A stretch of DNA of 64,000 nucleotides from a bacterium (GCA_965219955.1 OZ244799.1:1920001-1984000), one strand, 5' to 3'. Shown: positions 1 to 46,322, counted from the first letter of the stretch. The notes: generated by a model not told the origin, from the sequence alone. Program-made: numbers and translations.

Positions 1-2
1 TG

Positions 3-1076
3 TCAGGCGGCCTGTATCCGGGACCACGTCGCCTCGTATAGCCGCGCCACCTCCTCTCCTAGGTAGAGCGCGGGCTCGCACCTCGAAAGCGTCATATCGT
101 CCGGGTATATTACCGGGTTCTCCAGGTAGCTCGCCGGCAGCAGCGCCTTCGCGGCTGCGTTTGGCGTCGCATACCGGATCGTGGCCGCAATTGCCGCCCC
201 GGCCTCGGCCCCCAGGATGAAGTTCAAAAATGCGTGCGCGTTTTCGGGATGCGGCGCGCCGCGGGGTATCGCAAGCGCATCCTCCCACAGGCTCGAACCC
301 TCACGAGGCACGACATAGGATATATCGTCGTCTTTCTCCATCGCCTGAAGGATGTCCCCGTTCCATTCCATTGCGATGTCCACTTCACCGGAAAGCAGCA
401 GTTCCTGGCCGTTGTCCGGCGCGAACTGCTTGATTTGCGGCTTTTGCGCGATAATCATCCTCTCGGCCGCCTTCACGACCTTCGGGTCGCTCGTGTTGAG
501 TGGATGGCCCATGTACTTGAAGGCCGCTCCCAGTACGCTGCTCGCCTCGCTCAAAAGCGCGCAACGCCCCCTGTAGCGCCCCGAATCGAACAGCCAGCGC
601 CAACTGTCGGGGGTTCCGTCGCAACGCGACTTGCGGTAGCCGATCCCCATCGTGCCCCACATGTAGGGGATGGAATGTAGGCGACCGGGATCGAAGGCGG
701 CGTCCCGGAAAGCGTGCTCGATATTCACCATATTGGGGATGGCTTCGTGGTCGAGGGGCGTGAGCATATCGGCCGCGACCATCCGCTCCACGAAATCGTT
801 CGAAGGCGCGATCACGTCGTAGCCGGGATTGCCCGCTTTCAGTTTTGCGAACAACTCCTCATTGTCGGAATAAATGTCCATTCGCACCGATACGCCGGTC
901 TTGGCCTTGAAGTCCGAAAGGGTGGTCTTGCCGACATAGGAGTCCCAATTATAGAAGTTGAGCCTGGGCTCCTCTCTCGCGAATCCGTCGCTCGGCAAAA
1001 GAGAGACCGCAGCCGCCATGCCCATCCCCGCCATGAAGCGGCGCCGCGTCAGCCTGCACATCGAACCCGTTAGCAT
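3..1076 (-). CDS. potD: Spermidine/putrescine ABC transporter substrate-binding protein (PotD/PotF family), Tat-exported
   Basis: Twin-arginine leader LTRRRFM; motifs LNFYNWDSY, DNEELFAKLKAGNPGYDVIAPS, PYMWGTMGIGYR, VPREGSSLWEDALAIP, AHAFLNF. Confidence 0.88.
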   Translation of the reverse strand: MLTGSMCRLTRRRFMAGMGMAAAVSLLPSDGFAREEPRLNFYNWDSYVGKTTLSDFKAKTGVSVRMDIYSDNEELFAKLKAGNPGYDVIAPSNDFVERMVAADMLTPLDHEAIPNMVNIEHAFRDAAFDPGRLHSIPYMWGTMGIGYRKSRCDGTPDSWRWLFDSGRYRGRCALLSEASSVLGAAFKYMGHPLNTSDPKVVKAAERMIIAQKPQIKQFAPDNGQELLLSGEVDIAMEWNGDILQAMEKDDDISYVVPREGSSLWEDALAIPRGAPHPENAHAFLNFILGAEAGAAIAATIRYATPNAAAKALLPASYLENPVIYPDDMTLSRCEPALYLGEEVARLYEATWSRIQAA

Positions 1077-1899
1077 GGCGAACTCCTCTTTTCGTTATAG
1101 TCGTTCAGGTCACGTAGAGCATGACGAAACCCTCAACCTTGCAAAGAATCCGTGGCAAGACTGCACTTGCTGATTTATGACAGCAGAACGCCTGCAGCGC
1201 AAGTTTCTGTAGATGCAGGATATTGGGATACATCTCTTTCGGCAGAAGATTTTCCATGTGGGGGTTTCTTCACAGAGAACCGCTCGTCACTGGAGTTTCC
1301 GCATGCCTTAAAAATGCTGTAATCAGACGCGGCCTTCGAGAGGGCGACCAGCGTGGCGCAAGCAGTTACGACGTAGAAGTGAACCTGTTCCATGGACAAT
1401 CTCCTGAGCGGGAAACTGTATCACTTTGCCCCAGCGTGATGTTGCCGGGATACACAGGGTTATTCTTTTGTCCGCTTTGGATTCGGTTACATTTGAACAA
1501 GACAAATCCTGAGCGAAATACGAGAAAAGCAAATATCTGCTAAGGTTTCAATAAGCTACGAAGTGTTTCACGGCAGTTAGCCATGCACTGGTGTCTCATA
1601 CGGATGATTTCCTCTTTTTCCGGCTATCACCGCCTGAACATTCGACTCGACCATTACTCGTTGCGGTACGGGGAGTGTTCAGAAAGAGTTTGCGCCTCTC
1701 GCACGATCACAACTTAACCGGCAAGATGCCCGTCAACGCATTTCCAGCGTGTCGTTACAATTGTTTTCGTCTTTTTCAAGGGCTATGATGGGATGTTGCA
1801 ACGACTTCAATTCAGGGCAAAAATGTCAATCTTTGCGAGGCTGTCAATCCTTGTAGTCGATCACGGATACTTGGTTAATCTTGGAACCAGGCCAACGTC

Positions 1900-3078
1900 A
1901 TGTTGACTTTTGTCGAGGAGCTTCTCCTGCTGACGGCCGATGAAGACGGCGAGTTGGTTCCGATGCAGGATGACCGATACGAATGCGCCATGGCAGGCGC
2001 CGCGCTGATGGACTTGGCTTTCGCCAACAGGATCGACACCGACCTGCAAATGCTCGTGGTCAGCGACCACACGCCGACCGGCGATTCCATGCTCGACCGT
2101 ATCCTGGCGAAGATTGCGGACCGCAAGCAGGCCGTGGATACGCGGAGGTGGATCAAGGATTTATCCGAAGACGAAGCACTCACGATACAGGAGTCGACGC
2201 TTAACGGCCTTGTCGAGCGCGGCATCCTGAAACACCAGGAGAAAAGATTCCCGTGGACCTCCCGCTCCCGGCGCTGCTTGATGGTTGACGGCAAGGCCCG
2301 GAACGAGGTCAGTCTGCGTATCGAGAATGTGCTGATTTCCGAGGCTATCCCCGATCCCCGGGACATCGCCCTGATCTCTTTGTTGGATGCGTGCGATATC
2401 CTCCCGGATATCTTTCCCGGCGGCTGGATGGAACGATGCCGCCCCCGGCTCGAGCAGCTTCGCAAAATGGACTTGATCGGCCGTGAGGTAGCCGGCGCGA
2501 TCGCCGATGTCGATCGAACGATCATTCTCGCTCTACGAGCCCGGTCGACACGTTTCCGAAAGTTGCTGCTGGCCCTCTCCGCCATGGGCGCTCTGGCTAC
2601 GGCGGCGACGTTGCTGTCTCCCCGCGTCCCCGTACCGGACCGGTTCGGCCCCACGTTCCTTGAGCTTCTCTGGTTCGACGGTCTGTGGCAGCAGTGGAGC
2701 GGCTATGCGCTTCTCGGATTGAGCGGGGCGGGATTCATGGCGGCGGCGCTCAGGAAATGGCGGCCTGCGGCGCGATTGGGCGGCTCCAATTGGTGGCGGC
2801 TCGCCCACCTCGTGATCGGTATCTGCTGCGTGCTCGTCTTGTTCGTCCATACCGGCTTCCGGATAGGCGCGAATATGAACGCGGCGCTCATGATCTGCTA
2901 TCTGGCCATGCTGATGTCCGGCGCGTTGGCCGGAATCTCGATCAACGGAGCGTCTCAGCTCCGTAGAATCGGGGTTTCCCCGAAACCGCTCTACTTTCTG
3001 ATGAAACTCCACGTCATCGCGCTATATCCACTGCCTGCTCTGCTGATCATCCACATCCTCATCGTCTATATGTACTGA
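1900..3078 (+). CDS. Fusion of N-terminal GPP34/GOLPH3(Vps74)-family domain and C-terminal multi-TM His-containing (cytochrome b-like) membrane domain
   Basis: N-term MLTFVEELLLL...AGAALMDLAFANRID...PTGDSMLDRILAKI...LVERGIL...PDPRDIALISLLDAC typical of GPP34; C-term ~5 hydrophobic helices with WRLAH, LFVHTG, KLHV, IIHIL. Confidence 0.75.
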   Translation: MLTFVEELLLLTADEDGELVPMQDDRYECAMAGAALMDLAFANRIDTDLQMLVVSDHTPTGDSMLDRILAKIADRKQAVDTRRWIKDLSEDEALTIQESTLNGLVERGILKHQEKRFPWTSRSRRCLMVDGKARNEVSLRIENVLISEAIPDPRDIALISLLDACDILPDIFPGGWMERCRPRLEQLRKMDLIGREVAGAIADVDRTIILALRARSTRFRKLLLALSAMGALATAATLLSPRVPVPDRFGPTFLELLWFDGLWQQWSGYALLGLSGAGFMAAALRKWRPAARLGGSNWWRLAHLVIGICCVLVLFVHTGFRIGANMNAALMICYLAMLMSGALAGISINGASQLRRIGVSPKPLYFLMKLHVIALYPLPALLIIHILIVYMY

Positions 3079-3089
3079 GAGAACTGCGC

Positions 3090-4580
3090 GTGTCACGGAA
3101 GGCGATTTTCTGGATTCTATGCACAACCGGAACCCTCCTCGCCGTAGCCGTCACGGCGGTGTGGATGTTTTTTGGTGGTGATCGCGGAACGCTGGTGATC
3201 GGCAAAGGCACCGATGCCCACCACCAGATAATGACGACCTGCGAGACCTGTCACGCCGCGCCGGTTTTCGCTGATGCGGCTGCGGCGGAAAGGGCGCTTA
3301 ACAAGACTTGCCGGAACTGCCACGAAGAAGAACTGAAGGCCGCCGGTGACAGCCATTCGCGCAAGAAGTTTCGCGGTCCAAGAATGGCCGCATACTGGGA
3401 AAGACTCGATGCGCGTCGCTGTACAGCCTGCCATATAGAGCACCGTCCCGAGATCACGCGCGCAGGGGCCGTCACCGTCGCGATGGATTTCTGCGTGGCT
3501 TGTCATTCAGAAGGCGATCAGGACGTGCGGAAGGTTCGCCCGAGCCACGCGGGGCTGACCTTTAACACATGTGCGTCGGGGGGCTGTCATAATTACCATG
3601 ACAATCGCGCCCTATATGAGGATTTCCTGGTCAGGCACGCCACTCAGCCCCGGGTTGCGCCCTTACCGGTGCACAGTTTGAGTGCGCGTTACCGAACTCG
3701 GCAACTACCAGAGAAGACGGCGCTCAGAAGGAGAGACGCCATAGCTCCCGAGAGCGCGCTCGCCGAACAGGCGGTGTTGAACCAATGGGCCAGCTCCGGT
3801 CACGCGGCAGGGGGGGTGAACTGCGCCGGTTGCCACGCGCCTGATGTCGCGCAAGGTTCTCCTCGCGCCGAAGTAGAGGCCCGCTGGGTCGACGCGCCGC
3901 GCATGAGGGTTTGCGAAGGTTGCCACAAGATGCAAGCGAGAACATTTGCACGGGGAAGGCACGGCATGCGCGGACACCCATTGATCGCGCCTCCCCGCGA
4001 CCCGGGCCGCCGGCTCGAAGCGATGGGGCTCGGCGGCATCCTGCCGGAGGGAATCGCGGCCCGGTTCGCGGACCCGGCCCCTCCGGCTTTCATGACCGTC
4101 GCCGAGTCGCGTCTGCCGATGCGGGCCGACGCCGTCAGTGGAACGCTCAATTGCGGAACGTGTCACCGGCCCCATGCGGTGGACATCAAGCGGGCCGCGG
4201 TCCAAGCTTGCGCATCCTGCCACGATGACACCCACACCAGAGCCTACTTCGAAAGCACCCACTACGGGTTGTGGCAAGCCGAGCTTGCCGGTGAAGCGCC
4301 GCCGGGCGGTGGCGTCAGCTGTGCGACCTGTCATCTGGTCAAGATCGAACGTCGCGGGAAGATCATGACCAATCACAACCAGAATGACAATCTGCGACCG
4401 AACGAGAAGATGATCCGGTCCGTATGCCTGGATTGTCATGGCCTGGGTTTTGCGCTCGACTCGCTTGCGGACACGGGGCTCGTGGCCCGAAACTTCAGGG
4501 GGAAGCCCGCGGTTCATGTCAGAAGCATCGAATGGGCTAAGCGGCGCGCAGCGGCAACTGGGTGGAACAAAGGACGTTGA
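3090..4580 (+). CDS. Membrane-anchored multiheme cytochrome c (10 CxxCH + 1 CX4CH)
   Basis: N-terminal TM helix; CETCH, CRNCH, CTACH, CVACH, CAGCH, CEGCH, CGTCH, CASCH, CATCH, CLDCH plus CASGGCH. Confidence 0.9.
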   Translation: MSRKAIFWILCTTGTLLAVAVTAVWMFFGGDRGTLVIGKGTDAHHQIMTTCETCHAAPVFADAAAAERALNKTCRNCHEEELKAAGDSHSRKKFRGPRMAAYWERLDARRCTACHIEHRPEITRAGAVTVAMDFCVACHSEGDQDVRKVRPSHAGLTFNTCASGGCHNYHDNRALYEDFLVRHATQPRVAPLPVHSLSARYRTRQLPEKTALRRRDAIAPESALAEQAVLNQWASSGHAAGGVNCAGCHAPDVAQGSPRAEVEARWVDAPRMRVCEGCHKMQARTFARGRHGMRGHPLIAPPRDPGRRLEAMGLGGILPEGIAARFADPAPPAFMTVAESRLPMRADAVSGTLNCGTCHRPHAVDIKRAAVQACASCHDDTHTRAYFESTHYGLWQAELAGEAPPGGGVSCATCHLVKIERRGKIMTNHNQNDNLRPNEKMIRSVCLDCHGLGFALDSLADTGLVARNFRGKPAVHVRSIEWAKRRAAATGWNKGR

Positions 4581-4637
4581 CCAACTGCCACGCATCGTTC
4601 AAAATCCGGGAAGACAAACAGGGAGGATCAGATTGCC

Positions 4638-5258
4638 ATGCGTCTAGGCACACGCAAGCTGGTCGGACTCGCACTCGGCGCGGCGATTTTAATGGCGGCG
4701 GGTGTTGCGGCCGAGGGGATACCGCACCGCCGGGTAGCCGATATGCTGCATCTCGTAGTGTCCTCGGATCGGGCGGTGTATACGCGCAAGGTGGTCCAGC
4801 GTCTTACGAGAGACAAGAAGATCATCACCGCATCGGAGCATTTCGAAGACGATTCGGCATTGCCTCTGCCGGCGCAGATGTTCCGTTTCGGCGCGGAATT
4901 AGTTACCGACAAGACCGAGGACTTCTCGTATTCGCTACTCTCGTTACATCCGATCAACAAGAAAAACGGCCCGGGAACGAATATGGAGAGGAAAGGCCTC
5001 GAATATGTCGAAAATAATCCGGGAAAGAATTACTACGGTGAGGAGAAACTCGGCGGCCGACGCTACTTCACCGCCGTCTACCCCGACTATGCCGTGGCCG
5101 AAGCCTGCGTGAATTGCCACAACAGCCACAAGGACTCTCCCCGCGCCGATGCCACGGTCGGCGACGTGATGGGCGGCGTCGTCATTCGTATCCCGCTGGA
5201 CTTATGTCGGCGGGTTTCGCCCGTTGTCCGGCGTTGTAACCCGTATGAAAAACGATAG
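4638..5258 (+). CDS. DUF3365/Tll0287-like monoheme c-type periplasmic protein
   Basis: Signal peptide; LPLPAQMFR, SYSLLSLHPIN, single CVNCH followed by GDVMGGVVIRIP. Confidence 0.8.
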   Translation: MRLGTRKLVGLALGAAILMAAGVAAEGIPHRRVADMLHLVVSSDRAVYTRKVVQRLTRDKKIITASEHFEDDSALPLPAQMFRFGAELVTDKTEDFSYSLLSLHPINKKNGPGTNMERKGLEYVENNPGKNYYGEEKLGGRRYFTAVYPDYAVAEACVNCHNSHKDSPRADATVGDVMGGVVIRIPLDLCRRVSPVVRRCNPYEKR

Positions 5259-5716
5259 CCGACACGTTTCCGATGGTATGGACGCGCCCTCCCGGAAACT
5301 TCACACCAGAGGCAAGTGATATGGCTTGCCGCGCTGCAGGGGGTTCTCCAGGAAACAGGTTCACATCCGTATCGGTTTTTGTTTTTTGGCGTCGGATGGA
5401 TTTCGAAACGTCACGGCAGTTCCCCTCCGGACCTCGCTGGTACCCCGCATTCACGTGACGATGAAACCTTTGTCGGTCGTTCGCATTATTCTCCGGAGCA
5501 CGAACAAGGAGTAGACCATGTTGCTTTGGAACGAAGGCGGGCGGGTTGCGATTTCCCGACACCCTGTATTATCCTTTCAGAATGCTCGGAACAGGACACG
5601 GCGGAGCGAGGCCGCTACACAATCAATCTTCATGCAAGCCCAATGTGGCCTTGCGGGGAAACACCGACACTTATTCCGAATCGACCGACACACACAACGA
5701 GAACAGGGGGCCAACC

Positions 5717-6754
5717 ATGAAATCCAGAGTTCTTCTTATCTTCGTTTTGACCATCGCCATAGGAACTGCGGCGCTCGTATCCCTGCCGAGCCGGGCGGAT
5801 GCCGCCTGCAGCGTCCGCATCGGCGACCTGAACTGGGACAGCGCGAACTTTCACGATCAGGTGGCCGCCTTCATCCTGGAGCACGGCTACGGCTGCCGGG
5901 TGCGGCTCATCTACGGCGGCACGCTGCCGATCATGACGGCCCACTACGAAGGCAAGAACGACATTATCATGGAACTTTGGTACGACAACGTGAAGGCGCA
6001 GTACGACCCCGCCATGAAGAGCGGCAAGGTCAAGCAGGTGGGAGTCAACACGCCCGACAGCATACAGGGCTGGTTCATCCCGCGCTTCGTTCAGAAGGCG
6101 AATCCCGGCCTCAAGTCTGTCTTCGACCTGCCCAAGTACAAGCATCTCTTCAAGGACCCCGAAGAGCCCTCCAAGGGCCGGTTCGTGAACTGCATCCCCG
6201 GCTGGTCGTGCGAGGTCATCAACACGGTGAAGCTGCGCGCCTACGGGCTGGAGGAGCATTTCACCAACTTCCGGCCCGGCTCCGGCGGCGCGCTCGCGGC
6301 GGCCATCAAGGGCGCGTATCTCAAGAAAAAGCCGGTGCTCGCCTATTACTGGGCGCCGACGCCGCTCCTGGGACAGCTCGACCTCGTGCAGCTCGAAGAG
6401 CCCAAATGGAACGAGGCCGACTGGAACGTGGTGGTGAAACACATGGACGCGCTCAAGAAGGGCGGAATGGAGGCCTTGGGCAACCCCAAGAAGGCGACCG
6501 CCTACCGGACGGCGGAGCTGCCGAAGTCGGTCACCACGAAGTTCGCGGCCAAGCATCCGAAGATCGTCGCCTTCATCGAGAAATACACGCTGCCATCCAA
6601 AGAAGTCTCGAAGATGCTGGCCTATCTCGAGAGCAAAGCCGGCGGCGACGCCAAAGCCACCGCGATCCATTTCCTGAAGACCAACAAGGTCTGGAAGAAG
6701 TGGGTTCCGGCCGACGTAGCGAAAAAGGTCGAGGCGGCGCTCGAATCGGCTTGA
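5717..6754 (+). CDS. Glycine betaine/proline-type ABC transporter substrate-binding protein (ProX/OpuAC family)
   Basis: Start moved to MKSRVLL (signal peptide, AGGGGG SD upstream); DLNWDSA, MELW, FKDPEEPSKGRF, GWSCE, NFRPGSG, YYWAPT motifs. Confidence 0.88.
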   Translation: MKSRVLLIFVLTIAIGTAALVSLPSRADAACSVRIGDLNWDSANFHDQVAAFILEHGYGCRVRLIYGGTLPIMTAHYEGKNDIIMELWYDNVKAQYDPAMKSGKVKQVGVNTPDSIQGWFIPRFVQKANPGLKSVFDLPKYKHLFKDPEEPSKGRFVNCIPGWSCEVINTVKLRAYGLEEHFTNFRPGSGGALAAAIKGAYLKKKPVLAYYWAPTPLLGQLDLVQLEEPKWNEADWNVVVKHMDALKKGGMEALGNPKKATAYRTAELPKSVTTKFAAKHPKIVAFIEKYTLPSKEVSKMLAYLESKAGGDAKATAIHFLKTNKVWKKWVPADVAKKVEAALESA

Positions 6755-6815
6755 GTTGCGCCCGCGCGATGTTTTTTTCTCGTGAAGCGGCGCCTGGTCC
6801 CGGGGAGGTCCGCCG

Positions 6816-7724
6816 ATGATGAAGTTCTTCCGCGGACTATTCCCCGACTGGGCGGTCGAATGGCCCAAGGGCCTGAACCTGCCGCTGAACAAGTGGACCA
6901 ACGATTTCGTCGAATGGCTGGTCTACGAGTACGGGATCATCTTCGAGACCGCCTCGGACGCCATTCTCGTTCTGCTGGTCGGCCTCGAGCGTTTCCTGCG
7001 CGACCTCCCCTGGCTCGTCGTATTCTTGGGCGTGTGCGCGCTCACCTTCTTCTCCAGCGGGCGCAAATGGGGCCTGACCGCGCTGGTGGCCGCCTGTATG
7101 TTCTTCATCGGCCTCACCGATCCCAGGCTGTGGGATTTGTCGATGATGACCCTTTCGGTCATGCTGGTTTCGACCCTGATCTGCATCGGCCTGGGCGTTC
7201 CGATCGGCATCGCGATATCGAGAAACGACCGGATGCGCGACATGGTGCTGCCCGCGCTCGACCTGATGCAGACGATGCCGAGCTTCGTCTATCTCATTCC
7301 GGCGATCATGCTCTTCGGCCTCGGCGCGGTGCCCGCCGTCTTCGCCACGGTGATCTACGCCATCCCGCCGGTGGTCCGCCTGACCGACCTGGGGATCCGC
7401 CTGGTGGATGAGGACATCGTCGAAGCATCCGACGCCATGGGCGCGAGCCGGAGGCAGAAGCTCCTTCGCGTGCAGATACCGATGGCGCTGCCCAACATCA
7501 TGCAGGGAGTCAACCAGACCACGATGATGGCGCTCGCGATGGTGGTGATCGCCTCGATGATCGGAACCCGGGGGCTCGGCACCGAGGTGCTCATCGGCCT
7601 CCAGCAGCTCAACGTCGGGCGCGCGCTCGAGGCCGGCGTGGCCATCGTGCTGCTCGCCATCGTGATGGACCGCGTCACCCAGGCCTACGGCGGGCGCTTC
7701 ATCCGCACGAGCGGGAGGGTCTGA
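6816..7724 (+). CDS. Betaine/proline ABC transporter permease (ProW family)
   Basis: LDLMQTMPSFVYLIP, PPVVRLTDLGIR, EAA-like EASDAMGAS, GVNQTTMMALAMVVIASMIG. Confidence 0.92.
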   Translation: MMKFFRGLFPDWAVEWPKGLNLPLNKWTNDFVEWLVYEYGIIFETASDAILVLLVGLERFLRDLPWLVVFLGVCALTFFSSGRKWGLTALVAACMFFIGLTDPRLWDLSMMTLSVMLVSTLICIGLGVPIGIAISRNDRMRDMVLPALDLMQTMPSFVYLIPAIMLFGLGAVPAVFATVIYAIPPVVRLTDLGIRLVDEDIVEASDAMGASRRQKLLRVQIPMALPNIMQGVNQTTMMALAMVVIASMIGTRGLGTEVLIGLQQLNVGRALEAGVAIVLLAIVMDRVTQAYGGRFIRTSGRV

Positions 7725-7728
7725 GCCG

Positions 7729-8787
7729 ATGGCGCTGATCGAGGTGCGAAACGTCTACAAGATATTCGGAACGGGACGCGCGCTGGAGGCGGCGCTCGAC
7801 CTGGCCCAGACGGGCGTCGAGAAGAACGACGTGCTGGTCGAGACCGGCTGCACGCTGGGCTTAAAGGACGTGAGCCTCTCCATCGAGCGGGGCGAAACAT
7901 TCGTGGTCATGGGCCTTTCGGGTTCGGGAAAGTCGACTCTGATCCGCCACATCAACCGGCTGATCGACCCGACGACGGGCCGGATCCTCGTCGACGGGCG
8001 GGACGTGCTCGAACTCTCGCCCGAGGAGTTGCTCGCGTTCCGCCGAAGCGCCGTGAGCATGGTCTTTCAGCGCTTCGCGCTCTTCCCGCACATGACGGTA
8101 CTGGAGAACGTGGGCTACGGCCTGGAAGTCCAGGGGACCGAGCACGCCGAGCGGCGCAGGCGCGCGATGCGGTGGATTGAGGACGTGGAGCTCAGCGGTT
8201 ACGAGAACGCCTATCCGGCCCAGCTCTCGGGCGGCATGCAGCAGCGCGTGGGCCTGGCGCGCGCCCTGTGCACGGACCCCGAGATTCTGCTCATGGACGA
8301 GCCCTTCAGCGCCCTGGACCCGTTGATACGCAAGCAGATGCAGGAACATCTCATCACCCTTCAGCGCGACCTCAAGAAGACCATCGTGTTCATCACCCAC
8401 GATCTCGACGAGGCGCTCCATCTGGGCGATCATATCGCCATTCTGAAAGACGGCGTGATCGACCAGACGGGCAAGCCCAACGAGATTCTGCTCCGTCCGG
8501 CCACTGACTATGTGCGTGAGTTCGTGCGCGAAGTGAAGCGCGGGCGCATCCTGAAGACGGGTGACGTCATGTGGCCGCCCGATGCGGCGGCGACCGGCCC
8601 GACCATATCGCGCGACGCCGTGCTGCAGGACGCGCTGCCCGTGTCCATGATGAACGAATCCCCGCTGCGCGTGGTGGACGAGACGGGCGCAGTGGTCGGC
8701 GTGCTCTCTCGAACGGCCCTCCTGCGCGGTCTGACCGATCATGGCAGTAAAAAAACAGAAGCGGTTTCGCTGACGAGCCACATATAA
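7729..8787 (+). CDS. Betaine/proline ABC transporter ATP-binding protein (ProV family)
   Basis: Walker [50 protein letters not shown]. Confidence 0.93.
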
Positions 8788-8918
8788 ACGCTCCCTGTAT
8801 TGGCACCCATTTCCCTGATTGGTTTGTCTCGTAATTCCGGCAATCATCGGAATGCCGGTATTCAATAAAAATTTTCAGGGGCCGCTTGAGAGCGACCAAC
8901 GTTCGCGAACGGCCCCGT

Positions 8919-9010
8919 CGATCCATTTCCTGAACACGAACGGGGTCTAGGAGGAAGTGGCTTCCGGCCGACGTAGCGAAAAAGGTCGGGGTGACGGCTC
9001 AAATCGGCGT
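8919..9010 (+). repeat. Degenerate duplicate of the 3' end of the betaine SBP gene (6663-6752)
   Basis: cgatccatttcctgaa...ttccggccgacgtagcgaaaaaggtcg...aatcggc present at both positions with indels and substitutions. Confidence 0.8.
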
Positions 9011-9206
9011 CGTTCGCGCCAGATGAACGAACGAGAGGGCGCTGCGAACCTTGCTGACGAGAGGCTGTTTTTCGCCATGATGAAGGCGATGCGGAAACCG
9101 GAAGGAACTCGCAACTGGGAGCAACCTTTTTGCCGGTTGGCGCCGACGCGCCGAACGACGCGGCTCTCCTGGCCCGAGCGGCCCTACAGCCCTCCGTAAT
9201 GAAATC

Positions 9207-10490
9207 CTAGAAGCTGTATTGAAGTCCTACCTGGAGGCGCGTCGCGTCGCCCTCCTCGCCGCCGTTCGTCTCGCGCCATCCCTGGATGATCTCCGCACCA
9301 ATCCTCGTCTTGGGCGCGGGTGACCACCAGATGGTGGCGTGCAGCGTCTGGAGCGACTGGCTGAGGGCCGGATACGCCGCTTGGGCGGCATCCTCGAAAT
9401 CATTCTCCACCCAGCCGTAATACAAGCCCGAGCTCACCGCGCTGGTCCAGTTATGCGTGATCCCCACGAAACCACCCATGGAATCCAGCGCTTCCAGCTC
9501 GTTGTTTGCGCTCAAGACAGCGGCGGCGGACGCTCCCAGCATGGATTGATCCAATCCGCCCTGGCCGACGTTGAACGTGCCCCACAGGCGGGTGTCCTTG
9601 CCCAGGCCGATGTTCGCGCCGAGGTGGAGAGCACTCATTGTGACGCTTTCTTCCAGCGCGCCGTCTTCGTAGAGAACCTGCCCCAACAGACCCGACACGT
9701 TAATTGCGCCCCAACCCGTTTTCATTCGCAGAGCCGCTACAAGGTTTGGAATCCGCTCCTGGGAGGACGTTTTTCCGCCGTCCTTCAGGATAGTCGGTGC
9801 GCTGGGATCCTCGAGCGCCACCTGCATCGTGAGGTCCTTTCCCATGGCCTGGGAGTAGCGGACTTGTGGCCGGCGGGTTGCGACCACGCCCACAGGACCT
9901 TCGAAATCGATCGTATCGGCGTAGGTGTTCTCGTCCATCAACGTCGTCCAGGTCTGGCCCGCCAGCACCCCGCCCAAAGTGCCGTAGGCGTGACGCAGGC
10001 GCAGGGCGTTGCCGCCACCGTAGAAATCGGTTTCGATTCTGGTTTTGAGGTTCCCCATTTTCGTCGGCGTCAGGCTGTCGAAGCGAAGGCGCGTCTGCCG
10101 GGCGTGCAAGGAGGCCTTGCGCTGACCACTGTCATCGCCCTCCAAGAGAATGCCGCTCGCGCCGCCTCCCCAGTCATAGCCGAAAAAGGAATCACCCATA
10201 TCCTGATCGAAATCGTAGATGGCGTCGAGCTTGACGTAGCCACTGAACGAGACGGAAGTGTTCGATCCCGGCATCTTCCAGGAGCCCGGAAAATCACCGG
10301 TAGCCACGGCCTTTTTCTGGGCGGCTTCCTGGGCGGCCATCATATCGGCCTTCATCTTCTTCTCCCGGGCTTCGAGAGCTTCGAGCCGCTCCATGAGAGC
10401 CTTGATCTGCGCCTTGAGATCGTCTATCTCTCCCCCGGCGGCAGGTGCTGCGAACAACGCCAAGGCCGTTACGCATCCAAGAAGCGCCAA
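9207..10490 (-). CDS. DcaP-family trimeric outer-membrane porin
   Basis: Signal peptide, N-terminal coiled coil, GYVKLDAIYD, ARQTRL, IETDFYG, LRLRHAYG, AGQTWT, C-terminal YSF; true start may be at 10517 (see findings). Confidence 0.85.
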   Translation of the reverse strand: MALLGCVTALALFAAPAAGGEIDDLKAQIKALMERLEALEAREKKMKADMMAAQEAAQKKAVATGDFPGSWKMPGSNTSVSFSGYVKLDAIYDFDQDMGDSFFGYDWGGGASGILLEGDDSGQRKASLHARQTRLRFDSLTPTKMGNLKTRIETDFYGGGNALRLRHAYGTLGGVLAGQTWTTLMDENTYADTIDFEGPVGVVATRRPQVRYSQAMGKDLTMQVALEDPSAPTILKDGGKTSSQERIPNLVAALRMKTGWGAINVSGLLGQVLYEDGALEESVTMSALHLGANIGLGKDTRLWGTFNVGQGGLDQSMLGASAAAVLSANNELEALDSMGGFVGITHNWTSAVSSGLYYGWVENDFEDAAQAAYPALSQSLQTLHATIWWSPAPKTRIGAEIIQGWRETNGGEEGDATRLQVGLQYSF

Positions 10491-25988: not shown

Positions 25989-28900
25989 CTAGAAGCGCAT
26001 CCTAAGAGTCACCCGCCCGGCGTATTCCGAATCGTCGGAACCCAGGCCATACACCGACACCTCGCCGCCGAGCGAGAAGCGGCCCTTGCGGTAGACGCCG
26101 CCCAGCCCGAACAGGAACCGCGTCTCGGGCGATTTCGATACGAGCCTCTCTCCCGACACGTCGACGGCAGTCTCCGCGTCGCCGAGTTTCTGTTCGAGGT
26201 CCACCGAACCCCGTAGCGAGAACATCCCTCCATCCCAGGTGCGCTCCATCTTGGCCACTAATCCGACGCCGCCCGCGAGGCGCCTCGCATCATCAATAGA
26301 GAATCGAGCGCCCGCCGAGTCGTTGAATTTGTCGATGGAAACTTCCGAGCGCGTCGCCCAGGCGCGGGGCGTGAGGTTCATCCGCTCGCTCATCTTGATA
26401 CGCCTGCCTGCTTCGAGGCTCATGAGTGTGCCGCGCGAGGCGGCGTCGCGCTTCAAGGTTCCCACATCCGCGTCGCCGGAGATGATGTCCACGTCGTAAT
26501 CCGTCAGCGAGAGGCTCCCGTTCGCGTAGTAGCCGCCCGCGCCCTTCCAGGAGGCGGCCAGCGACACGCCGGTTCCTTTCGCCTTGATGTCTCCGCCGCC
26601 TGTTGGTGCGGAAACGTCCGCAGAACCCTTCACTTGGAGCAACGATATCGAGCCGGTGAAATGCTCTCCCATTCCGATGTCCAGCCCGGCTTGCGCCGTG
26701 AAGCGATTGAAGTCGTATTCCGCGCCGACGCTCGCGCGCTCAGGCTCGTACGAGCCCCTGCCGCCGGAGAGCTTTGTCCACACCGGCGAGCCGGGCGAGC
26801 GTAACCGTTCCCCTTCAGGCGCCCCGCTGTTCAGGCGAAGTAAAAAGCCGGGCAGGGCCTCGTAGAGAGCCGCGCGTGGAGCGTAGACCTCGAGAAGGTT
26901 GCTCGAGTTGCGGGCTTCGATAACACCCGCGGCCAGCTCGCCGGCGGCCTGGTCGCCGTTCGTCAGAAAATCGGCCGCCGCATTGCCCAAGCCGCCGAAT
27001 ACATACTTAACGACCCGGCCGCCGCCTTTGTGAAAAACGGACACCGCTTTGCCTGAGCCGTCGAACACACGAATCGGCGGATTCATGCAGTCCGGCGGCG
27101 TGCCGACCTGCCCTTCCGGACAGGTGGGCGGCGTCTCGATGAAATCTCCGGCGGAAAAATCCCGGTCAGCGATGACGCCCGCAGCCGGTTCGCTGATAAC
27201 CCAGTTCACCGGGTTCGAGCCGATACGCTCCGTTACGGTAACCCCTTCCGCTCTTATCGTGACATTCCACGCCCCGTTGTGAGCCACAGCGTTGGGGACG
27301 ACGCCCTTCCCGCCATCGTGAAGCATAACCTCGTTGACCACGATGGTGGTCTCTCCCCCGTCGTTGATAATCCAGTCGTCCCCGATTACGTCACGCACCC
27401 GGCGGCCGTTCAGATTCATATCGACAAGCAGCCTGGGATCATTTCCCGCTGCATGGATTGCGACCCCATACTGCGTGCGTATCGTTCCCTCGGGTCCGAT
27501 GCAGACCTCGCCCCCGGCCGGGAGATAAACACCCGCCAAGCTGTACACGTCGCCGAATATGGGCCTGTCCACCACGACCTTTCGAGGCATCGGCGGAGGC
27601 GGCGGAGGCGGCGGTGGTGGAGGCGGCGGTGGTGGAGGCGGTGGTGGCGGCCGCGTCTCGTTGAAGTCCGCCGACGAGAAATCCCGGTCGGCGACGACGC
27701 CTGCGGCCGGTTCTGTGATCACCCAGTTCGCCGGGTCCGTGCGATCTACGGTGACGCCTTCTTCTCTCATACGGACGTTCCACGCCCCGTTGCGAGCTAC
27801 CGCGTCGGTGACCGTTTCGCCGGCGTGTAGCACGGTGCCGTTGACCGCGATGGTGGTCTCTCCCCCGTCGTTGATGATCCAGTCATCGCCGATGGCCTGC
27901 GACACCCGGCGGCCGGCGAGGTTCAGATCCACACGCAGCCTGGGTGGAATGGCCGGGAGCACGTTATCCGGGTCGGTATTGTCTTCCGCTACGGTGCCCG
28001 TGGCCAGGATCGCAATACCCGAGCCTGAGCTGATGCTGCCCTGTGGCCCGATGATCACTTTGCCGCCACCGGCAAGGTACACACCCTCTGCCGCACTGTT
28101 TATTGCCCCGTTGACCGTAACGGTCTGCTCGCGATAGCCCAATGCATCCAGGGACGCCGTAAGGAATGGCATGTTATTGCTGACTGCGCCCACCTGCACG
28201 CCACGTGCGCCCGCACCGCTCACATCGATCCTGCCACCCACCGTGACGTCCATGCTGCGTCCTGCAGCCGTCCCTCTATGATAGACCACGATGCCGTGAC
28301 CATTGGGACCCGTCGTGGTGATCCTGTTATTTGCTCCCGTGGCAAGGTTGACGTTGCCGGATCCAAAGTGCAGGCCGTAAATACCGTAAGAGTGGGTCCC
28401 GGCCGTAGTGATGGTGCCCTGCGTGTCGACATGGACGTCGCCGGTACCCTCATGAAGTCCGTAAATGCCGTGGGCCGAAGTAATGGCGTTATCCTGCGAG
28501 ATCAAACCCACACTTTCCGTGGTGATGGCGTAATCGCCTTTTATGTCGATCCGGCCCTCGCCGCTTGAGCTTGCATGATGCCAGCTGAGAACGCCATGTC
28601 CCTGTGTGCCTCTTGTCGTGATGCTGCAGGGAACTGCAGGGGAGTCCGTACAGACCAGATTGATCGCCTGGTCACCTGTACCGGAATGCTGGCTAATTAT
28701 GGCATAACCGATATCACCTCCGGTCATGATTGTAGTGTCCCTGAGCGTCATGTGGACATCGCCAGGCCCGCCCTCTCGCAAGGCAAAAAGGCCGTGCGAC
28801 CTGTTCGTCGTAACGGAAATCCCCTGGGTCAGGAGAGTGATGTTGTTTACCTGGTCTGCAGTGTAATTCTCTTTTGCGATGCGGACACCGATTCCTGCGG

Positions 28901-29489
28901 TATCAATCGTCACACCGCTCCTCAAGTCCACTTCAATGTGGCCATTGCCCCTATGCTGGGCAACCAGTCCCCAGGAAGTAGTATCTTGTGTGCGGATTCC
29001 GGTATCTTCCAATGTGAAGGTGAGGGTGCCTTCACCACTCAAGTGGGCCCAGACACCGTGTGTAACTCTGCCCGTCGTGTCGATCATCGAGCGGGTGGTT
29101 GTCATGCCTGTTGTGATACCGGCGATGCTGATATCCACATCCCCGCTGCCGAGATGCGTAGCCCTCACACCCGCGTTGGTGGTGCCGGTCCCAGTCAAGT
29201 CGATATCGATACCCATCGCATCGATGTCGATATTGTTGGTCGATGTTTCACTTTCTTCACATTCAATATGATTCCCTGTGCCAGGTGTGTTGCTGCATAC
29301 AGGCGCAGCCCGCACTTCGCCTTGGGCAAAGGCAACCAGCAGAACCGAGGCGCAAAGCCTGAGCAAGACCCGCCTCAGTTCACCGGCACACCTCCGCTTA
29401 CTCGCAAATATGAGCATATGCACAGCCTGTAACGTAGAGCGCCCCAGCAAGTCAGCGGAAGAGAGTCGTGGCATATGCCTGAAGGACAT
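25989..29489 (-). CDS. Autotransporter (type Va) adhesin-like protein with poly-Pro linker and duplicated ~140-aa passenger module
   Basis: G/T-rich beta-helix repeats (ITTxGxxxHGI), Pro20 tract at 27591-27650, YAPRAALYEALP linker, C-terminal beta-barrel ending LRMRF. Confidence 0.88.
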   Translation of the reverse strand: MSFRHMPRLSSADLLGRSTLQAVHMLIFASKRRCAGELRRVLLRLCASVLLVAFAQGEVRAAPVCSNTPGTGNHIECEESETSTNNIDIDAMGIDIDLTGTGTTNAGVRATHLGSGDVDISIAGITTGMTTTRSMIDTTGRVTHGVWAHLSGEGTLTFTLEDTGIRTQDTTSWGLVAQHRGNGHIEVDLRSGVTIDTAGIGVRIAKENYTADQVNNITLLTQGISVTTNRSHGLFALREGGPGDVHMTLRDTTIMTGGDIGYAIISQHSGTGDQAINLVCTDSPAVPCSITTRGTQGHGVLSWHHASSSGEGRIDIKGDYAITTESVGLISQDNAITSAHGIYGLHEGTGDVHVDTQGTITTAGTHSYGIYGLHFGSGNVNLATGANNRITTTGPNGHGIVVYHRGTAAGRSMDVTVGGRIDVSGAGARGVQVGAVSNNMPFLTASLDALGYREQTVTVNGAINSAAEGVYLAGGGKVIIGPQGSISSGSGIAILATGTVAEDNTDPDNVLPAIPPRLRVDLNLAGRRVSQAIGDDWIINDGGETTIAVNGTVLHAGETVTDAVARNGAWNVRMREEGVTVDRTDPANWVITEPAAGVVADRDFSSADFNETRPPPPPPPPPPPPPPPPPPPPMPRKVVVDRPIFGDVYSLAGVYLPAGGEVCIGPEGTIRTQYGVAIHAAGNDPRLLVDMNLNGRRVRDVIGDDWIINDGGETTIVVNEVMLHDGGKGVVPNAVAHNGAWNVTIRAEGVTVTERIGSNPVNWVISEPAAGVIADRDFSAGDFIETPPTCPEGQVGTPPDCMNPPIRVFDGSGKAVSVFHKGGGRVVKYVFGGLGNAAADFLTNGDQAAGELAAGVIEARNSSNLLEVYAPRAALYEALPGFLLRLNSGAPEGERLRSPGSPVWTKLSGGRGSYEPERASVGAEYDFNRFTAQAGLDIGMGEHFTGSISLLQVKGSADVSAPTGGGDIKAKGTGVSLAASWKGAGGYYANGSLSLTDYDVDIISGDADVGTLKRDAASRGTLMSLEAGRRIKMSERMNLTPRAWATRSEVSIDKFNDSAGARFSIDDARRLAGGVGLVAKMERTWDGGMFSLRGSVDLEQKLGDAETAVDVSGERLVSKSPETRFLFGLGGVYRKGRFSLGGEVSVYGLGSDDSEYAGRVTLRMRF

Positions 29490-29937: not shown

Positions 29938-30769
29938 GCCGGGTAGGCGGGGGCATTGCTGCGCCACTCCCCCCACAGAGCCGGACGTGCGGGCACTACC
30001 GCATCCGGTTCCTCACGTGTCGGGTTTGCTCAAGGACGTTGTCGCCCCTGATCCGCAGATGCCGGGAACCACAGCCCCCCGGCGCCTGGCATGGCTATCC
30101 GCCGCCGTTACGTTGACGCGAGTGACGGAGCTCAGTGTCTCCCCCGCGTGTCCCGTCAGCGGGTCCGATCACGCGGTGCCCCCCTTCCCTCGGACGGGTC
30201 CCGATGGCCACGGTTCCCCGCCTTCAACGGTAATATGAGGGCGCTACGACTCCCGACACTGCATCCATCGGACTTATTGTTTTCGCCTTTCAGTACCATG
30301 CGCGCCTGCTCTGTTCGTGCCGTCGCTCACGCGCTCCCGACGCCCCGCAGGCAGGGTATCATCGGGCCGGGGTTTGGATTTAGGGCCGGTTACACCCCCG
30401 ACCGGCCATCGTTCACATGGACAGTGCCGGGCCTCTCAGGTTCCCTGGCGACCCATCCCGTGACTTTGCAGCGTTCTACGACCCCGGAGGGTCCTGCAAC
30501 GCCTCACCCGTAGCGGCGTCTGCGGTGCAGCCCCCATGACACTTAAACACAAAGGCACCCTCGCATTACGATTTCGAGGCTCAATAGCGCTGCTTCGCCA
30601 CCCCCTGTGTACGCTTCTCGACGTGCGTTGCCGTCCGCCACGCAACACTCGGTTCCGGCTGGCTGGCATGGCCTTTGCCGCGCGGGAGTTGAACCCGCTG
30701 GGTCGCGATGAAGAGTTTCAGCGATTTCAGGTCATCACATCCTCCCTTCCAGAGCTTAGCCTGACGCAA
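29938..30769 (-). mobile_element. ORF-less group II intron (~830 nt)
   Basis: 5' TTGCG start; domain I motifs (ccggaaccgagtgttgcgtgg...gcgtacacag...tgagcctcgaaa); gggagtcgtag...gagggaagggg; domain V gaaccggatgcggtagtgcccgcacgtccggctctgtgggggg; domain VI ending cctacccggc; no RT ORF. Confidence 0.85.
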
Positions 30770-34784: not shown

Positions 34785-35408
34785 ATGCGAAGCTCCCGGA
34801 GACGCTGGTGGCGGTGGCTGATCCTCCTCGTCTTGCTGTCCCCCCTCCTCGGGGTCGGCAGTCTGTACGGGATACGCGCCGTGGAGTCCTACGATCCGTT
34901 CTGTACGGTCTGCCACTTACAGGATCACCAGGATTATCTCGACGACGGGGCGCGCGCGGAGAACATGGTCAAGACGCTGGGCGGGTGGCACAAGAATGCG
35001 GGCGGCGTGAAGTGCATATCATGCCACGGGGAAGAGGGCATCACGGGGATGATCCGCACGACGATTCTGGCGAACAAGGACCTTTACAAATTCATCATCG
35101 GTGATTATGAGCAGCCCTCGCGCGTTTTCCATCCCATCCTCGATAAGGACTGTGTGAAGTGTCACGACGAGGAGCGTCTCCTGGAGTTGTCCGACGACGC
35201 GTTTCACGCCATCTCGGACCACGCGGAGCTCAAGGCGGACTGCGTGCAGTGCCATAATGGTCACCGCGTCGGGGGCGAGCGAGAAAAAGGGTTCATGGTG
35301 GCGGCCACGGCGCAGCCGCGTTGTGACGCCTGCCACGACGAACTGGAGCAAAAAGTGGATTTGAAGGATATTGAGCCGTTTCCCAGGAAGAGAGAATCTG
35401 ATAGTTAG
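34785..35408 (+). CDS. Membrane-anchored pentaheme cytochrome c (NapC/NirT-like N-terminus)
   Basis: N-terminal TM; FCTVCH, CISCH, CVKCH, CVQCH, CDACH. Confidence 0.85.
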   Translation: MRSSRRRWWRWLILLVLLSPLLGVGSLYGIRAVESYDPFCTVCHLQDHQDYLDDGARAENMVKTLGGWHKNAGGVKCISCHGEEGITGMIRTTILANKDLYKFIIGDYEQPSRVFHPILDKDCVKCHDEERLLELSDDAFHAISDHAELKADCVQCHNGHRVGGEREKGFMVAATAQPRCDACHDELEQKVDLKDIEPFPRKRESDS

Positions 35409-36523: not shown

Positions 36524-37570
36524 TCATCCTATCCGCCAAGCCGTCACGCCACCCTGCGCGTCGAGCGCGGCAAGCGCGCGCCCGTCCGGACGCCAATACA
36601 GCTTCGCCCCGATGCCCGCCAATACCGCGGTCCCGATCGGACGGCCATTTCCGTCTCTCTCGAGCGACCACACCACTACGGCGCCATCCCGTGCCGCCGA
36701 TGCCAGGCGCATCCCGCGGCGAGCGAAGGCAAGCGTCGTAACGGGTTGAACATGACGCTCCAGAACACCGGGCCGCGTGCCTTCGGGGCCATCTCCCTCG
36801 AAGCTCCAGACCGTCACCGCCTCCCCTCCGCCGGTGGCCAGAAGGGTGCCGGTATCATCGAAAGCCAGGGCCGATGGCTTGGCGGAATATCCTGACATCA
36901 TGGCGTCCTGCTCCGTGGAGCGACGCCAGAAGTGCACGGTGTTGTCCTGGCTGCCGCAGGCCACGATATCCCCGTCCGGGCTCAGCACCATCGACACCAG
37001 GGATCCCTGCCACTCCAGCTTCTGGCGAAGCTCGCCGGTGGGCGCGTCGAAGAACGTCACTCGGCCGTAACAGGCCGTCGCCAGCTCCCCTGCGCCCGAC
37101 CAGGCGATCGCGCTGACCGTGCTGGGTTGATCATCAGATCGCCAAACCTCCGCGCCGTCCACGCCATACGCGCGAACCTGCCGGGAGCAGGAGGCCGCCA
37201 ACCACTGGCCGTCCGGCGACCACGCCACGTTCTCCACCCAACCGCCCCCGATGTCGATAGCCTGTTGTACCTGACCTTCGGCGACACCCCAGATGAGGAC
37301 TCGTCCGTCCTGGCCGGCCGTAGCGAACGCGGTTCCGCTCGGGTGGATCGCCACCGCGAGCACACCGCCTTCATGAACCCCGCGCCGCTCCCAGGTGGTC
37401 GCGCCGGACTTGCCGTCGAATGCGTAAACGCCGCCCGCAGCGTCACCGACCATCAGCGCCTCACCACGCAGGCTCCAGCCACCGGCAATAGCGTAGTCGC
37501 CAACCGCCGCAGACCAGCCCCGGCGAAGAACACCCCTTGGGCCGTCGTCATTTTGAAGTGCCGCCGACAT
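36524..37570 (-). CDS. WD40 repeat protein
   Basis: Repeats TAGQDGRVLIW, VAWSPDG, CGSQDNTVHFW, SAARDGAVVVW; start placed at MSAALQ. Confidence 0.88.
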   Translation of the reverse strand: MSAALQNDDGPRGVLRRGWSAAVGDYAIAGGWSLRGEALMVGDAAGGVYAFDGKSGATTWERRGVHEGGVLAVAIHPSGTAFATAGQDGRVLIWGVAEGQVQQAIDIGGGWVENVAWSPDGQWLAASCSRQVRAYGVDGAEVWRSDDQPSTVSAIAWSGAGELATACYGRVTFFDAPTGELRQKLEWQGSLVSMVLSPDGDIVACGSQDNTVHFWRRSTEQDAMMSGYSAKPSALAFDDTGTLLATGGGEAVTVWSFEGDGPEGTRPGVLERHVQPVTTLAFARRGMRLASAARDGAVVVWSLERDGNGRPIGTAVLAGIGAKLYWRPDGRALAALDAQGGVTAWRIG

Positions 37571-37571
37571 C

Positions 37572-43126: not shown

Positions 43127-43146
43127 GGGCACTTTGGTTCCCTCAC

Positions 43147-45064: not shown

Positions 45065-45078
45065 AGCGCCGCCTCAAA

Positions 45079-46275: not shown

Positions 46276-46322
46276 GAATTCTTTCCTTTCGGTGTGAAAT
46301 GGGATTGAAATAGTTTTCTATT

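Follow-up and report, generated by a model that had tools for sequence, protein, structure and literature searches.

GPP34 joined to a putative di-heme b membrane domain, in an operon with a predicted undecaheme cytochrome and a heme-Cache protein

Introduction

The GPP34 domain (Pfam PF05719) is shared by the eukaryotic proteins GOLPH3 and Vps74. As described for these proteins, the phosphatidylinositol 4-phosphate (PI4P) pocket of GOLPH3 is lined by W81, R90, R171, and R174, and a hairpin marks the region in which GOLPH3 and Vps74 oligomerise (PMC2806290). The sole study of bacterial GPP34 function that we found reports, for sponge symbionts, short forms of 200-250 amino acids (aa), long forms of 620-700 aa in which GPP34 is joined to a cytochrome P450 (656 of the 663 long forms), and rare GPP34-Rieske and GPP34-PotA fusions (PMC11706023). 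It proposes that GPP34 is a secreted, PI4P-binding effector that helps the symbionts escape digestion (PMC11706023). Here we describe a bacterial GPP34 domain in another setting, at the head of an operon of three genes (A, B, and C) for heme proteins or putative heme proteins. The operon lies near one end of a 64,000-nucleotide stretch of bacterial DNA (GCA_965219955.1 OZ244799.1:1920001-1984000), the whole of which is called the window below.

Two further described families are represented in the operon or come close to it. A DUF4405 protein has been purified and, according to its report, binds heme b via four central histidines (bioRxiv 10.1101/2024.03.13.584918). The DUF3365 family has been defined as heme-Cache domains, about half of whose members are fused to signalling outputs (bioRxiv 10.64898/2026.02.01.703092). 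The stand-alone members, termed sCache_heme, are reported to behave as redox proteins (+123 mV) that bind NO and O2 weakly and are not gas sensors; the same source gives them no known genetic partners and no genetic link to signalling proteins (bioRxiv 10.64898/2026.02.01.703092). A preliminary description of the window, made from its sequence, had called the combination of these parts undescribed. As far as the literature searches reach (most subscription journals lie outside their coverage), neither this operon nor the related flavoprotein-headed module discussed below has been described.

The operon and its GPP34 domain

An open reading frame (ORF) search of the window places three co-oriented genes on the + strand, which form one operon. 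Gene A (1900..3078, 392 aa) encodes a GPP34 domain fused to a five-helix, four-histidine membrane domain, a putative di-heme b protein; gene B (3090..4580, 496 aa, GTG start) encodes a predicted membrane-anchored periplasmic undecaheme cytochrome c; and gene C (4638..5258, 206 aa) encodes a monoheme protein of the stand-alone Tll0287/DUF3365 (sCache_heme) kind, which has a signal peptide. Only 11 nt separate A from B and 57 nt separate B from C. Within A, the GPP34 domain takes up residues 1-215 (1900..2544, + strand), predicted to be cytoplasmic, and the membrane domain residues 216-392 (2545..3075, + strand). The preliminary description had recognised three tightly spaced, co-oriented genes here, for a GPP34-like domain joined to a multi-transmembrane domain with four histidines, a cytochrome with ten CxxCH motifs and one CX4CH, and a DUF3365 monoheme protein. 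Each of these assignments agrees with what is reported below.

The identity of the N-terminal domain, on which that description turned, is borne out at the levels of both sequence and fold. PF05719 matches A residues 6-203 (E 1.4e-38; 133.4 bits against a cut-off of 29.1) and is covered from profile position 3 to 200 of 201; the GPP34 piece by itself (residues 1-215) gives E 2.9e-39. A profile built from 20 family members finds the human GOLPH3 structure 3kn1 (E 7e-14) and also yeast Vps74. In the AlphaFold2 (AF2) model of A, the predicted local distance difference test score (pLDDT) is about 80-90 in residues 1-200, and a Foldseek search with this model returns GOLPH3 9qpq_B first (E 2.6e-9, TM-score 0.67), with 3kn1 and Vps74 2zih also found; GOLPH3 and Vps74 are the sole significant matches (8 at E<=0.001). 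The model also contains a predicted hairpin at residues 110-128. No cofactor motif is evident in the GPP34 domain, A has no Pyr_redox, FNR, or Fer2_BFD match in Pfam, the domain carries no signal peptide, and NCBIfam offers no family for A or C.

The PI4P pocket is not conserved. Through the profile alignment with GOLPH3, W81, R90, R171, and R174 map to A positions 23, 32, 94, and 97, which in the window are Q23, A32, L94, and Q97. Conservation was read from a protein search with A, which gave 971 relatives among 8000 candidates scored; the best 120 were analysed. In these 120, W is absent from position 23, which is R, Q, N, or E; position 32 is A in 105 and R or K in none; and position 94 is A, P, G, or D. 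The equivalents of W81, R90, and R171 are thus kept in 0/120 relatives, while position 97 is R, as in GOLPH3, in 70/120. Judged from this alignment, the canonical PI4P lipid pocket is lost in this GPP34 subfamily. Of the two roles that the preliminary description had allowed for GPP34, docking of a partner enzyme or of a lipid, the second is therefore disfavoured in its PI4P form. Other parts of the domain are held tightly: an RIDTD motif (44-48), an MDLIGRE motif (190-196), and C165 are invariant (the last in 120/120), and C29 is kept in 110/120 relatives.

Alphaproteobacteria, Binatia, and one Thermodesulfobacteriota record have stand-alone GPP34 proteins of 217 aa that share 52-58% identity with A. 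These proteins are collinear with it up to residue ~212 and end there, where the membrane domain of A begins, which indicates that an entire GPP34 unit became fused to the membrane domain. Genes beside the stand-alone forms were also inspected. In two Binatia loci a gene for a STAS-domain protein lies immediately upstream of the GPP34 gene (L066 7608-7991, L069 7587-7991), and a thiolase gene lies downstream of it in L069 and L072. A common redox partner beside the stand-alone genes was sought and not found; the neighbours are STAS, thiolase, NmrA, MFS, and HlyD genes.

Distribution of the fusion and of the operon

PF05719 is present in all of the best 120 relatives, which are 54-91% identical to A over 95-100% of the query; 119 are 388-456 aa long and one is a 249-aa fragment. 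Only six of them carry names, in each case 'GPP34 family phosphoprotein'. A genome scan with one genome per species yielded 303 stretches encoding a relative, from which 80 loci were kept. By tblastn, 64 of these encode the GPP34-membrane fusion and 16 a stand-alone GPP34 (~217 aa). Whereas GOLPH3 is a soluble peripheral protein, GPP34 thus runs in-frame into five hydrophobic helices in 64 loci. These come from ~53 assemblies, are confined to Gamma- and Alphaproteobacteria, and include records titled as whole chromosomes; at least 7 assemblies hold two or three copies, counted in the 80 of 303 loci kept. The preliminary description had left room for a join peculiar to this one assembly. An assembly or gene-calling artefact, in which a sequencing error joined two genes, is already refuted by this recurrence: the same 390-400 aa reading frame is met in 64 loci of two proteobacterial classes, and over 100 protein clusters, drawn from several sources, contain it as well.

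The gene order A-B-C is found in 54 of the 64 fusion loci and C-A-B in one (L005), with nearly constant spacing from A to B. Three loci have A and B with space for C yet no C (L003, L006, L059), one has A alone (L004), three are cut by a contig end (L029, L044, L052), and two seem to be interrupted or in decay (L040, L058). In L004, the ORF that follows A was considered as a cytochrome and rejected as a composition artefact. Outside the trio, no gene family occurs in more than 13 of the 80 loci, which makes the trio a self-contained cassette whose surroundings change. Over 44 complete loci, with the near-copies L001 and L002 excluded, C is on average 71% identical to the window, B 64%, the membrane domain 58%, and GPP34 55%, so that C is the best conserved of the proteins; identities of this order imply that every part is under constraint.

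Several individual loci deserve mention. In L058 (8001-8984 and 14130-15689) the fusion is broken at residue ~351, and another piece of the membrane domain lies ~5 kb further on, together with truncated B and C; in L040 (9234-9641) residues 15-150 alone remain of B; in L060 (8001-11252) A and B are decayed and spread over several frames. In L014, the gene immediately upstream of the fusion (6608-7927) encodes a cytochrome P450 (PF00067, E 2e-35). A regulator of the Rrf2 family (iron-sulfur type) adjoins the operon in eight of the 64 fusion loci, three times just after C and five times just before A (L019 11455-11895, L032 7758-8198, L035 9527-9967, L042 3519-3944, L043 1580-2005, L044 692-1114, L047 4976-5398, L052 5650-6042); the window has no Rrf2 regulator gene.

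The membrane domain

The C-terminal part of A has five hydrophobic helices, at about 220-241, 266-286, 299-320, 326-350, and 366-390. Its only histidines are H303 and H317 on helix 3 and H371 and H385 on helix 5, spaced 14 residues apart within each pair. All four are kept in 120/120 close relatives and are invariant or at least 90% conserved in a 51-row alignment of distant members. In cytochrome b and in ferric-reductase domains, histidines spaced in this way on a pair of parallel helices bind two hemes b, of which one lies toward either face of the membrane. The segments assigned to the cytoplasmic side (before helix 1, loops 2-3 and 4-5) have on average 11.2 K+R and 0.9 D+E, and those on the periplasmic side (loops 1-2 and 3-4, C-terminus) 3.5 K+R and 3.1 D+E. 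This pattern of loop charges fits an N-terminus-inside topology, in which GPP34 is predicted to face the cytoplasm.

With residues 210-392 as the query, an exhaustive representative search finds 528 proteins at E<=1e-3, 300 at 1e-10, and 8 at 1e-30. When 51 distant relatives are compared singly with Pfam, 16 match DUF4405 at E<=0.01 (best 3e-7), nine match Ni_hydr_CYTB, and four match Ferric_reduct; one relative, P0231, reaches 27.4 bits for DUF4405. The membrane domain is therefore probably cytochrome b-like, of the DUF4405/ferric-reductase kind, and may bind heme b.

Alternative heads on the same membrane domain

What precedes this membrane domain varies. Heads were labelled by BLAST in 151 sequences, namely the window protein and the 150 best representatives of the membrane domain, which is C-terminal in every one. 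The head is Pyr_redox in 77, GPP34 in seven, of FNR type in seven, and BFD [2Fe-2S] only in 26; the remaining 34, mostly fragments, have none. Pfam comparison of 45 chosen matches gives finer detail: 19 have Pyr_redox_2, usually with Rubredoxin_C and Fer2_BFD; four have GPP34; five have a head of cNMP-binding, BFD, FAD_binding_6, and NAD_binding_1 domains; 16 have BFD only, with or without Rubredoxin_C, many of these being truncated gene calls; and one has nothing. The flavoprotein head of one relative, P0130, is ~40% identical to the N-terminal 490 residues of NirB, and an Atlas search with P0130 shows that such relatives are named only automatically, as 'NAD(P)/FAD-dependent oxidoreductase'. 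None of 1500 plasmid records covers at least 80% of a flavoprotein-membrane fusion.

A quick maximum-likelihood tree was built from 118 complete membrane domains, after 33 fragments had been dropped. Its five GPP34-headed rows form one clade (Shimodaira-Hasegawa-like approximate likelihood ratio test, SH-aLRT, 100), joined with a support of 89 to the Pyr_redox-headed P0129 and P0130. A single GPP34 clade beside flavoprotein-headed forms fits one head swap. GPP34, a domain with no evident cofactor motif, stands where relatives have a flavoprotein, as the preliminary description had suggested when it proposed a replaced head, and the survey of heads makes the flavoprotein the commonest (77/151) and GPP34 rare (7/151).

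That description had also named a NirB-like head as the usual companion of the whole trio. The head itself is confirmed by the counts above and by P0130. Linkage to the trio, however, was seen in a single case, and there with an FNR-type and not a NirB-type reductase. This case came from a tblastn search of C against plasmids, which led to plasmid p1 of Flammeovirga kamogawensis (NZ_CP076130.1, L081 4217-8112), a cultured member of the Bacteroidota. The gene order there is globin, DUF3365 (275 aa), hypothetical (158 aa), 'ferredoxin-NADP reductase' (352 aa), and 'cytochrome c3 family protein' (228 aa). In the reductase, FAD_binding_6 and NAD_binding_1 are accompanied by Fer2. Homology of the 158-aa protein to the membrane domain is seen with hmmsearch (2.3e-8) and with hhalign (probability 91%); this protein has two pairs of His-13-His, and the DUF3365 protein matches C with E 4e-16. 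The cytochrome, with five hemes, is collinear with B residues 8-207, anchor included (BLASTP 1e-15); its fifth motif is CX2CH. On these homologies, the p1 cluster is a split form of the module, with the predicted flavin/[2Fe-2S] input as a separate gene.

The undecaheme cytochrome

In B, CxxCH motifs stand at residues 51, 74, 111, 135, 245, 275, 355, 374, 411, and 446, and CASGGCH, a CX4CH motif, at 161. The ten and one that the preliminary description had counted are invariant in 21/21 aligned orthologues, save that the CX4CH is CX2CH in two. No CxxCK occurs in B, all 11 cysteine pairs being followed by histidine. The protein has one hydrophobic N-terminal segment, at residues 4-29. Its Pfam matches are to c3, c7, and paired-CXXCH cytochrome models only, with none to PF03264 (NapC/NirT/NrfH); NCBIfam gives sub-threshold decaheme matches only, and tblastn of B against plasmids gives no match. 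A further 13 histidines are invariant in the 21 orthologues. Together with the 11 motifs these suffice for bis-His ligation of every heme, which suggests a wire rather than an enzyme. In profile comparison with solved structures, the C-terminal half of B shares modules with octaheme nitrite reductase (E 1.2e-10 for the whole match) and with NrfA (2e-6); the similarity to the former is local, covering B residues 400-465 and 240-301.

The heme-Cache protein

C matches PF11845, Tll0287-like (DUF3365), with E 5.4e-20 and 72.7 bits against a cut-off of 24.1. It has a signal-peptide-like N-terminus, a single CxxCH (residue 157), and one domain, without an output domain. C157, C160, H161, H164, H68, M36, and M81 are invariant in 20/20 orthologues. 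Unlike Tll0287, which is Cys/His-ligated, C has no cysteine ahead of the CxxCH; the invariant H68 and M81 are candidate distal heme ligands. A sequence search against solved structures gave nothing meaningful (best E 0.26). The window copy of C ends in an 18-residue tail (window 5202-5255) with two cysteines (190, 200). This tail is absent from all 19 aligned orthologues, including the 97%-identical copy in L002, which end at IRIPxD, and looks like the product of a lost or shifted stop codon. Plasmids of Rhizobium also contain matches to C, set aside as 530-aa signalling fusions with no membrane-domain or multiheme neighbour. For the stand-alone heme-Cache proteins, the present operon supplies genetic partners.

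Surroundings of the operon in the window

Similarity to the closely related locus L002 (94.9% at the nucleotide level) begins at window position 1806, 94 nt before the start of A, and L002 diverges from the window upstream of that point. The stretch 1806..1899 (+ strand) is thus conserved and is a likely promoter or 5' leader of the operon. A consensus scan finds no sigma-70-like site in it, and a promoter and terminator scan around the operon start gives no signal exceeding shuffles. The stretch is the end of a gap of ~820 nt without a convincing gene (window 1077-1899), in which G+C is 0.49-0.52 against ~0.6; the gap contains no Rfam family and no consensus promoter, and its final 94 nt alone are common to L002. 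Downstream, L002 shares with the window only the operon and ~850 nt beyond it (window 1806-6086), whereas L001 (1359-10887) is syntenic with window 1-9460 at 92.8% nucleotide identity. Even among close relatives, the cassette therefore lies in different surroundings.

Elsewhere in the window, a small membrane cytochrome c of the NapC/NirT kind (34785-35405, + strand; PF03264, E 3.9e-8) is unlinked to the operon. The - strand carries an autotransporter of 1166 aa (25992-29489), group II intron domains D1-D4 (30472-30691; Rfam RF02005, 136.9 bits against a gathering score of 49, E 8e-39), and a protein with WD40 repeats, a eukaryote-like repeat (36527-37654). On the same strand, an ORF with CobW_C only (38948-39514) and one with the cobW nucleotide-binding domain only (40461-41666) lie on either side of an IS110-family transposase (39647-40744), which suggests that in window 38948-41666 an insertion sequence has interrupted a CobW-type gene. 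Next along, window 41915-48424 contains an intact CobW paralogue and a znuA/zur/znuCB-like set, and two tandem HNH_2 endonuclease paralogues lie at 50653-52515 on the + strand.

Proposed mechanism and alternative readings

The reading that we favour, to which we give roughly an even chance, is that the module carries electrons across the membrane between hemes b and a multiheme cytochrome c, its cytoplasmic input head having been replaced by a GPP34 adaptor. The data above show the identities of the domains, their conservation, the linkage of the genes, the exchange of heads, and the loss of the PI4P pocket; from them we infer the topology, the direction of electron flow, physical contact among A, B, and C, heme b binding, and a docking role of GPP34. 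Helices 3 and 5 of A would run in the same direction, each offering two histidines, so as to hold one heme b near the cytoplasmic face (H303 and H371) and a second near the periplasmic face (H317 and H385). B, anchored through its N-terminal helix, would continue the path in the periplasm with a chain of eleven c-hemes, most of them bis-His ligated. C would be a soluble periplasmic c-heme Cache protein, acting as the end carrier or as the redox-sensing end of the chain. Electrons might then pass from the inner heme b to the outer one, through the eleven c-hemes to the heme-Cache protein, and on to whatever lies beyond. In the wider family, the membrane domain would be fed from the cytoplasm by the fused NAD(P)H/FAD/[2Fe-2S] head, or in Flammeovirga by the product of a separate reductase gene. 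In the lineage of the window, this input head would have been replaced once by a complete GPP34 domain, which may serve as an adaptor and keep at the inner heme either a regulator or a cytoplasmic redox partner that is the product of another gene. That GPP34 holds such a redox partner is the most uncertain part of the proposal.

Several observations weigh against this reading. Over the 80 loci no candidate partner of GPP34 is encoded nearby, and neighbourhoods beyond the trio differ; a P450 gene stands beside A in one of the 64 fusion loci, where it is the sole ORF with a P450 signature in the 80 loci and the window together. The trio is not obligatory either, given the three loci that lack C and the one that lacks both B and C. 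For the membrane domain, the window protein scores 18.4 bits against DUF4405, below the Pfam cut-off of 26.7, and the AF2 model is poor in this part (pLDDT ~50-60), so that sequence is the basis for the heme geometry. No root is set in the tree, whose alignment keeps some BFD columns that are absent from the GPP34 forms, and the direction of the swap would follow from the numbers of the different heads. Finally, the modules of B related to nitrite reductases leave room for a catalytic role, which the sequence neither indicates nor excludes.

The absence from A of any remaining cytoplasmic redox cofactor domain would suit a quinol-linked module. Here the membrane domain would exchange electrons with the quinone pool, a property of many di-heme cytochromes b, and pass them to or from B, while GPP34 would stay outside the path and regulate or place the complex, for instance by binding an anionic bacterial lipid or by oligomerising. 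The weak family matches to Ni_hydr_CYTB, a family of cytochrome b561-type quinone-reactive subunits (9/51), the basic residues directly before helix 1 (mean 3.8 K+R), and the predicted hairpin at 110-128, which is where GOLPH3 and Vps74 are described to oligomerise (PMC2806290), agree with such an arrangement. However, no quinone-site motif was identified, and the closest relatives are all fed by a fused or adjacent NAD(P)H flavoprotein and not by quinol. GPP34 is moreover as conserved as the membrane domain (55% vs 58%) and near-identical in layout to the stand-alone forms, which suggests a specific binding function. Quinol linkage is hence a possible reading, but clearly a less probable one. 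We regard it as unlikely that the flow is one of information, in a transmembrane redox sensor in which C and B would report periplasmic redox state, nitric oxide (NO), or nitrite and the b-hemes would alter GPP34 so that a cytoplasmic target is bound or released. DUF3365 does have a Cache sensor fold, with signalling outputs in about half of the members by the published account (bioRxiv 10.64898/2026.02.01.703092); heads with cyclic-nucleotide-binding domains occur in 5/45 relatives scanned, an Rrf2 regulator adjoins the operon in 8/64 loci at two different positions, and a globin gene lies beside the Flammeovirga cluster. Yet eleven c-hemes are costly for sensing, the neighbourhoods in the 80 loci show no conserved kinase or output domain, and C is of the stand-alone class, for which the one study available reports poor binding of NO and O2 and no genetic link to signalling proteins (bioRxiv 10.64898/2026.02.01.703092).

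Delivery of GPP34 to a host, where it would bind PI4P on phagosomes as proposed for the GPP34 proteins enriched in sponge symbionts (PMC11706023), would suit the several loci that come from sponge-associated lineages, as their records name them. It is nevertheless highly improbable for the protein described here, which has no signal peptide, continues into five membrane helices with an N-terminus-inside charge pattern, belongs to a family in which three of the four pocket residues are kept in 0/120 relatives and the fourth in 70/120, and is encoded by a gene locked in an operon with periplasmic cytochromes. Membrane anchoring, pocket loss, and operon membership together argue against the secreted-effector idea for this subfamily. 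The reported GPP34-P450 and GPP34-Rieske fusions point the same way as A, and GPP34 looks tied to redox chemistry. An extension of the adaptor reading, which we hold to be unlikely, would make symbiont-type GPP34 a modular docking unit by which the membrane-anchored A, via GPP34-GPP34 association through the conserved hairpin, would recruit the GPP34-P450, GPP34-Rieske, and stand-alone GPP34 proteins encoded in bacteria of the same kinds. Were this so, a classical ferredoxin/reductase pair could be dispensed with as electrons pass between cytoplasmic oxygenases and the periplasmic wire of eleven hemes, and bacterial GPP34 would be a redox-metabolon scaffold and not a lipid-binding host effector. 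With its three co-expressible genes, the operon offers a concrete system for finding what GPP34 binds.

Comparison with known systems

The GPP34 domain of A has the fold, the Pfam family, and the hairpin region of eukaryotic GOLPH3 and Vps74. It differs from them in that the PI4P pocket is not kept and that it is covalently tied to a bacterial membrane protein, with no Golgi context. The sponge-symbiont proteins contain the same kind of domain: the stand-alone forms are 52-58% identical and collinear, and the long forms, as reported, are likewise fused to proteins that need or carry electrons (PMC11706023). Neither the main text nor the spreadsheet supplement of that study mentions a class of ~392 aa with a membrane-heme part and a multiheme operon; 'transmembrane' and 'heme' have 0 occurrences in the text, and 'transmembrane' is absent from the spreadsheet (PMC11706023). 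For itself, the subfamily of A contradicts the effector picture, being predicted to lie in the bacterium's own inner membrane, having no PI4P pocket, and taking the place of an NAD(P)H/FAD/[2Fe-2S] input.

The membrane domain resembles DUF4405, MsrQ, and ferric-reductase (NOX-like) proteins, which also have two helices, each with two histidines 13-14 residues apart, that stack two hemes b across the membrane. Those proteins have six helices as against five in A, and the partner of A is a multiheme cytochrome, not a flavinylated or molybdo-enzyme. MsrQ takes its electrons from a separate soluble flavin reductase. CbcL of Geobacter, a cytochrome b plus multiheme c module in the inner membrane of metal reducers, is similar in overall logic, since CbcL-type modules also combine a di-heme b membrane part with a periplasmic multiheme c part. 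Quinol supplies the electrons of CbcL-type modules, which are not known to have a GPP34 or DUF3365 partner. The 'undecaheme' Uet cluster of Tenderiales was considered as the same system and rejected; it is a different one.

The closest counterparts are themselves uncharacterised. The NirB-like (Pyr_redox_2, Rubredoxin_C, Fer2_BFD) fusions have, like A, a homologous C-terminal membrane domain with the same four histidines, and are its nearest neighbours in the tree; their head carries FAD/NAD(P)H and [2Fe-2S] sites, whereas A has a GPP34 domain without a cofactor motif. The p1 cluster of Flammeovirga kamogawensis, of which we have seen annotation but no study, places homologues of all three components side by side as in the window, but its reductase is a separate gene, it has no GPP34, and its 5-heme cytochrome matches B residues 8-207 only. 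Taken with these relatives, the operon belongs to a widespread, unstudied module, present in at least Pseudomonadota and Bacteroidota, in which a four-histidine membrane domain, a multiheme cytochrome, and a heme-Cache protein are combined with interchangeable cytoplasmic heads.

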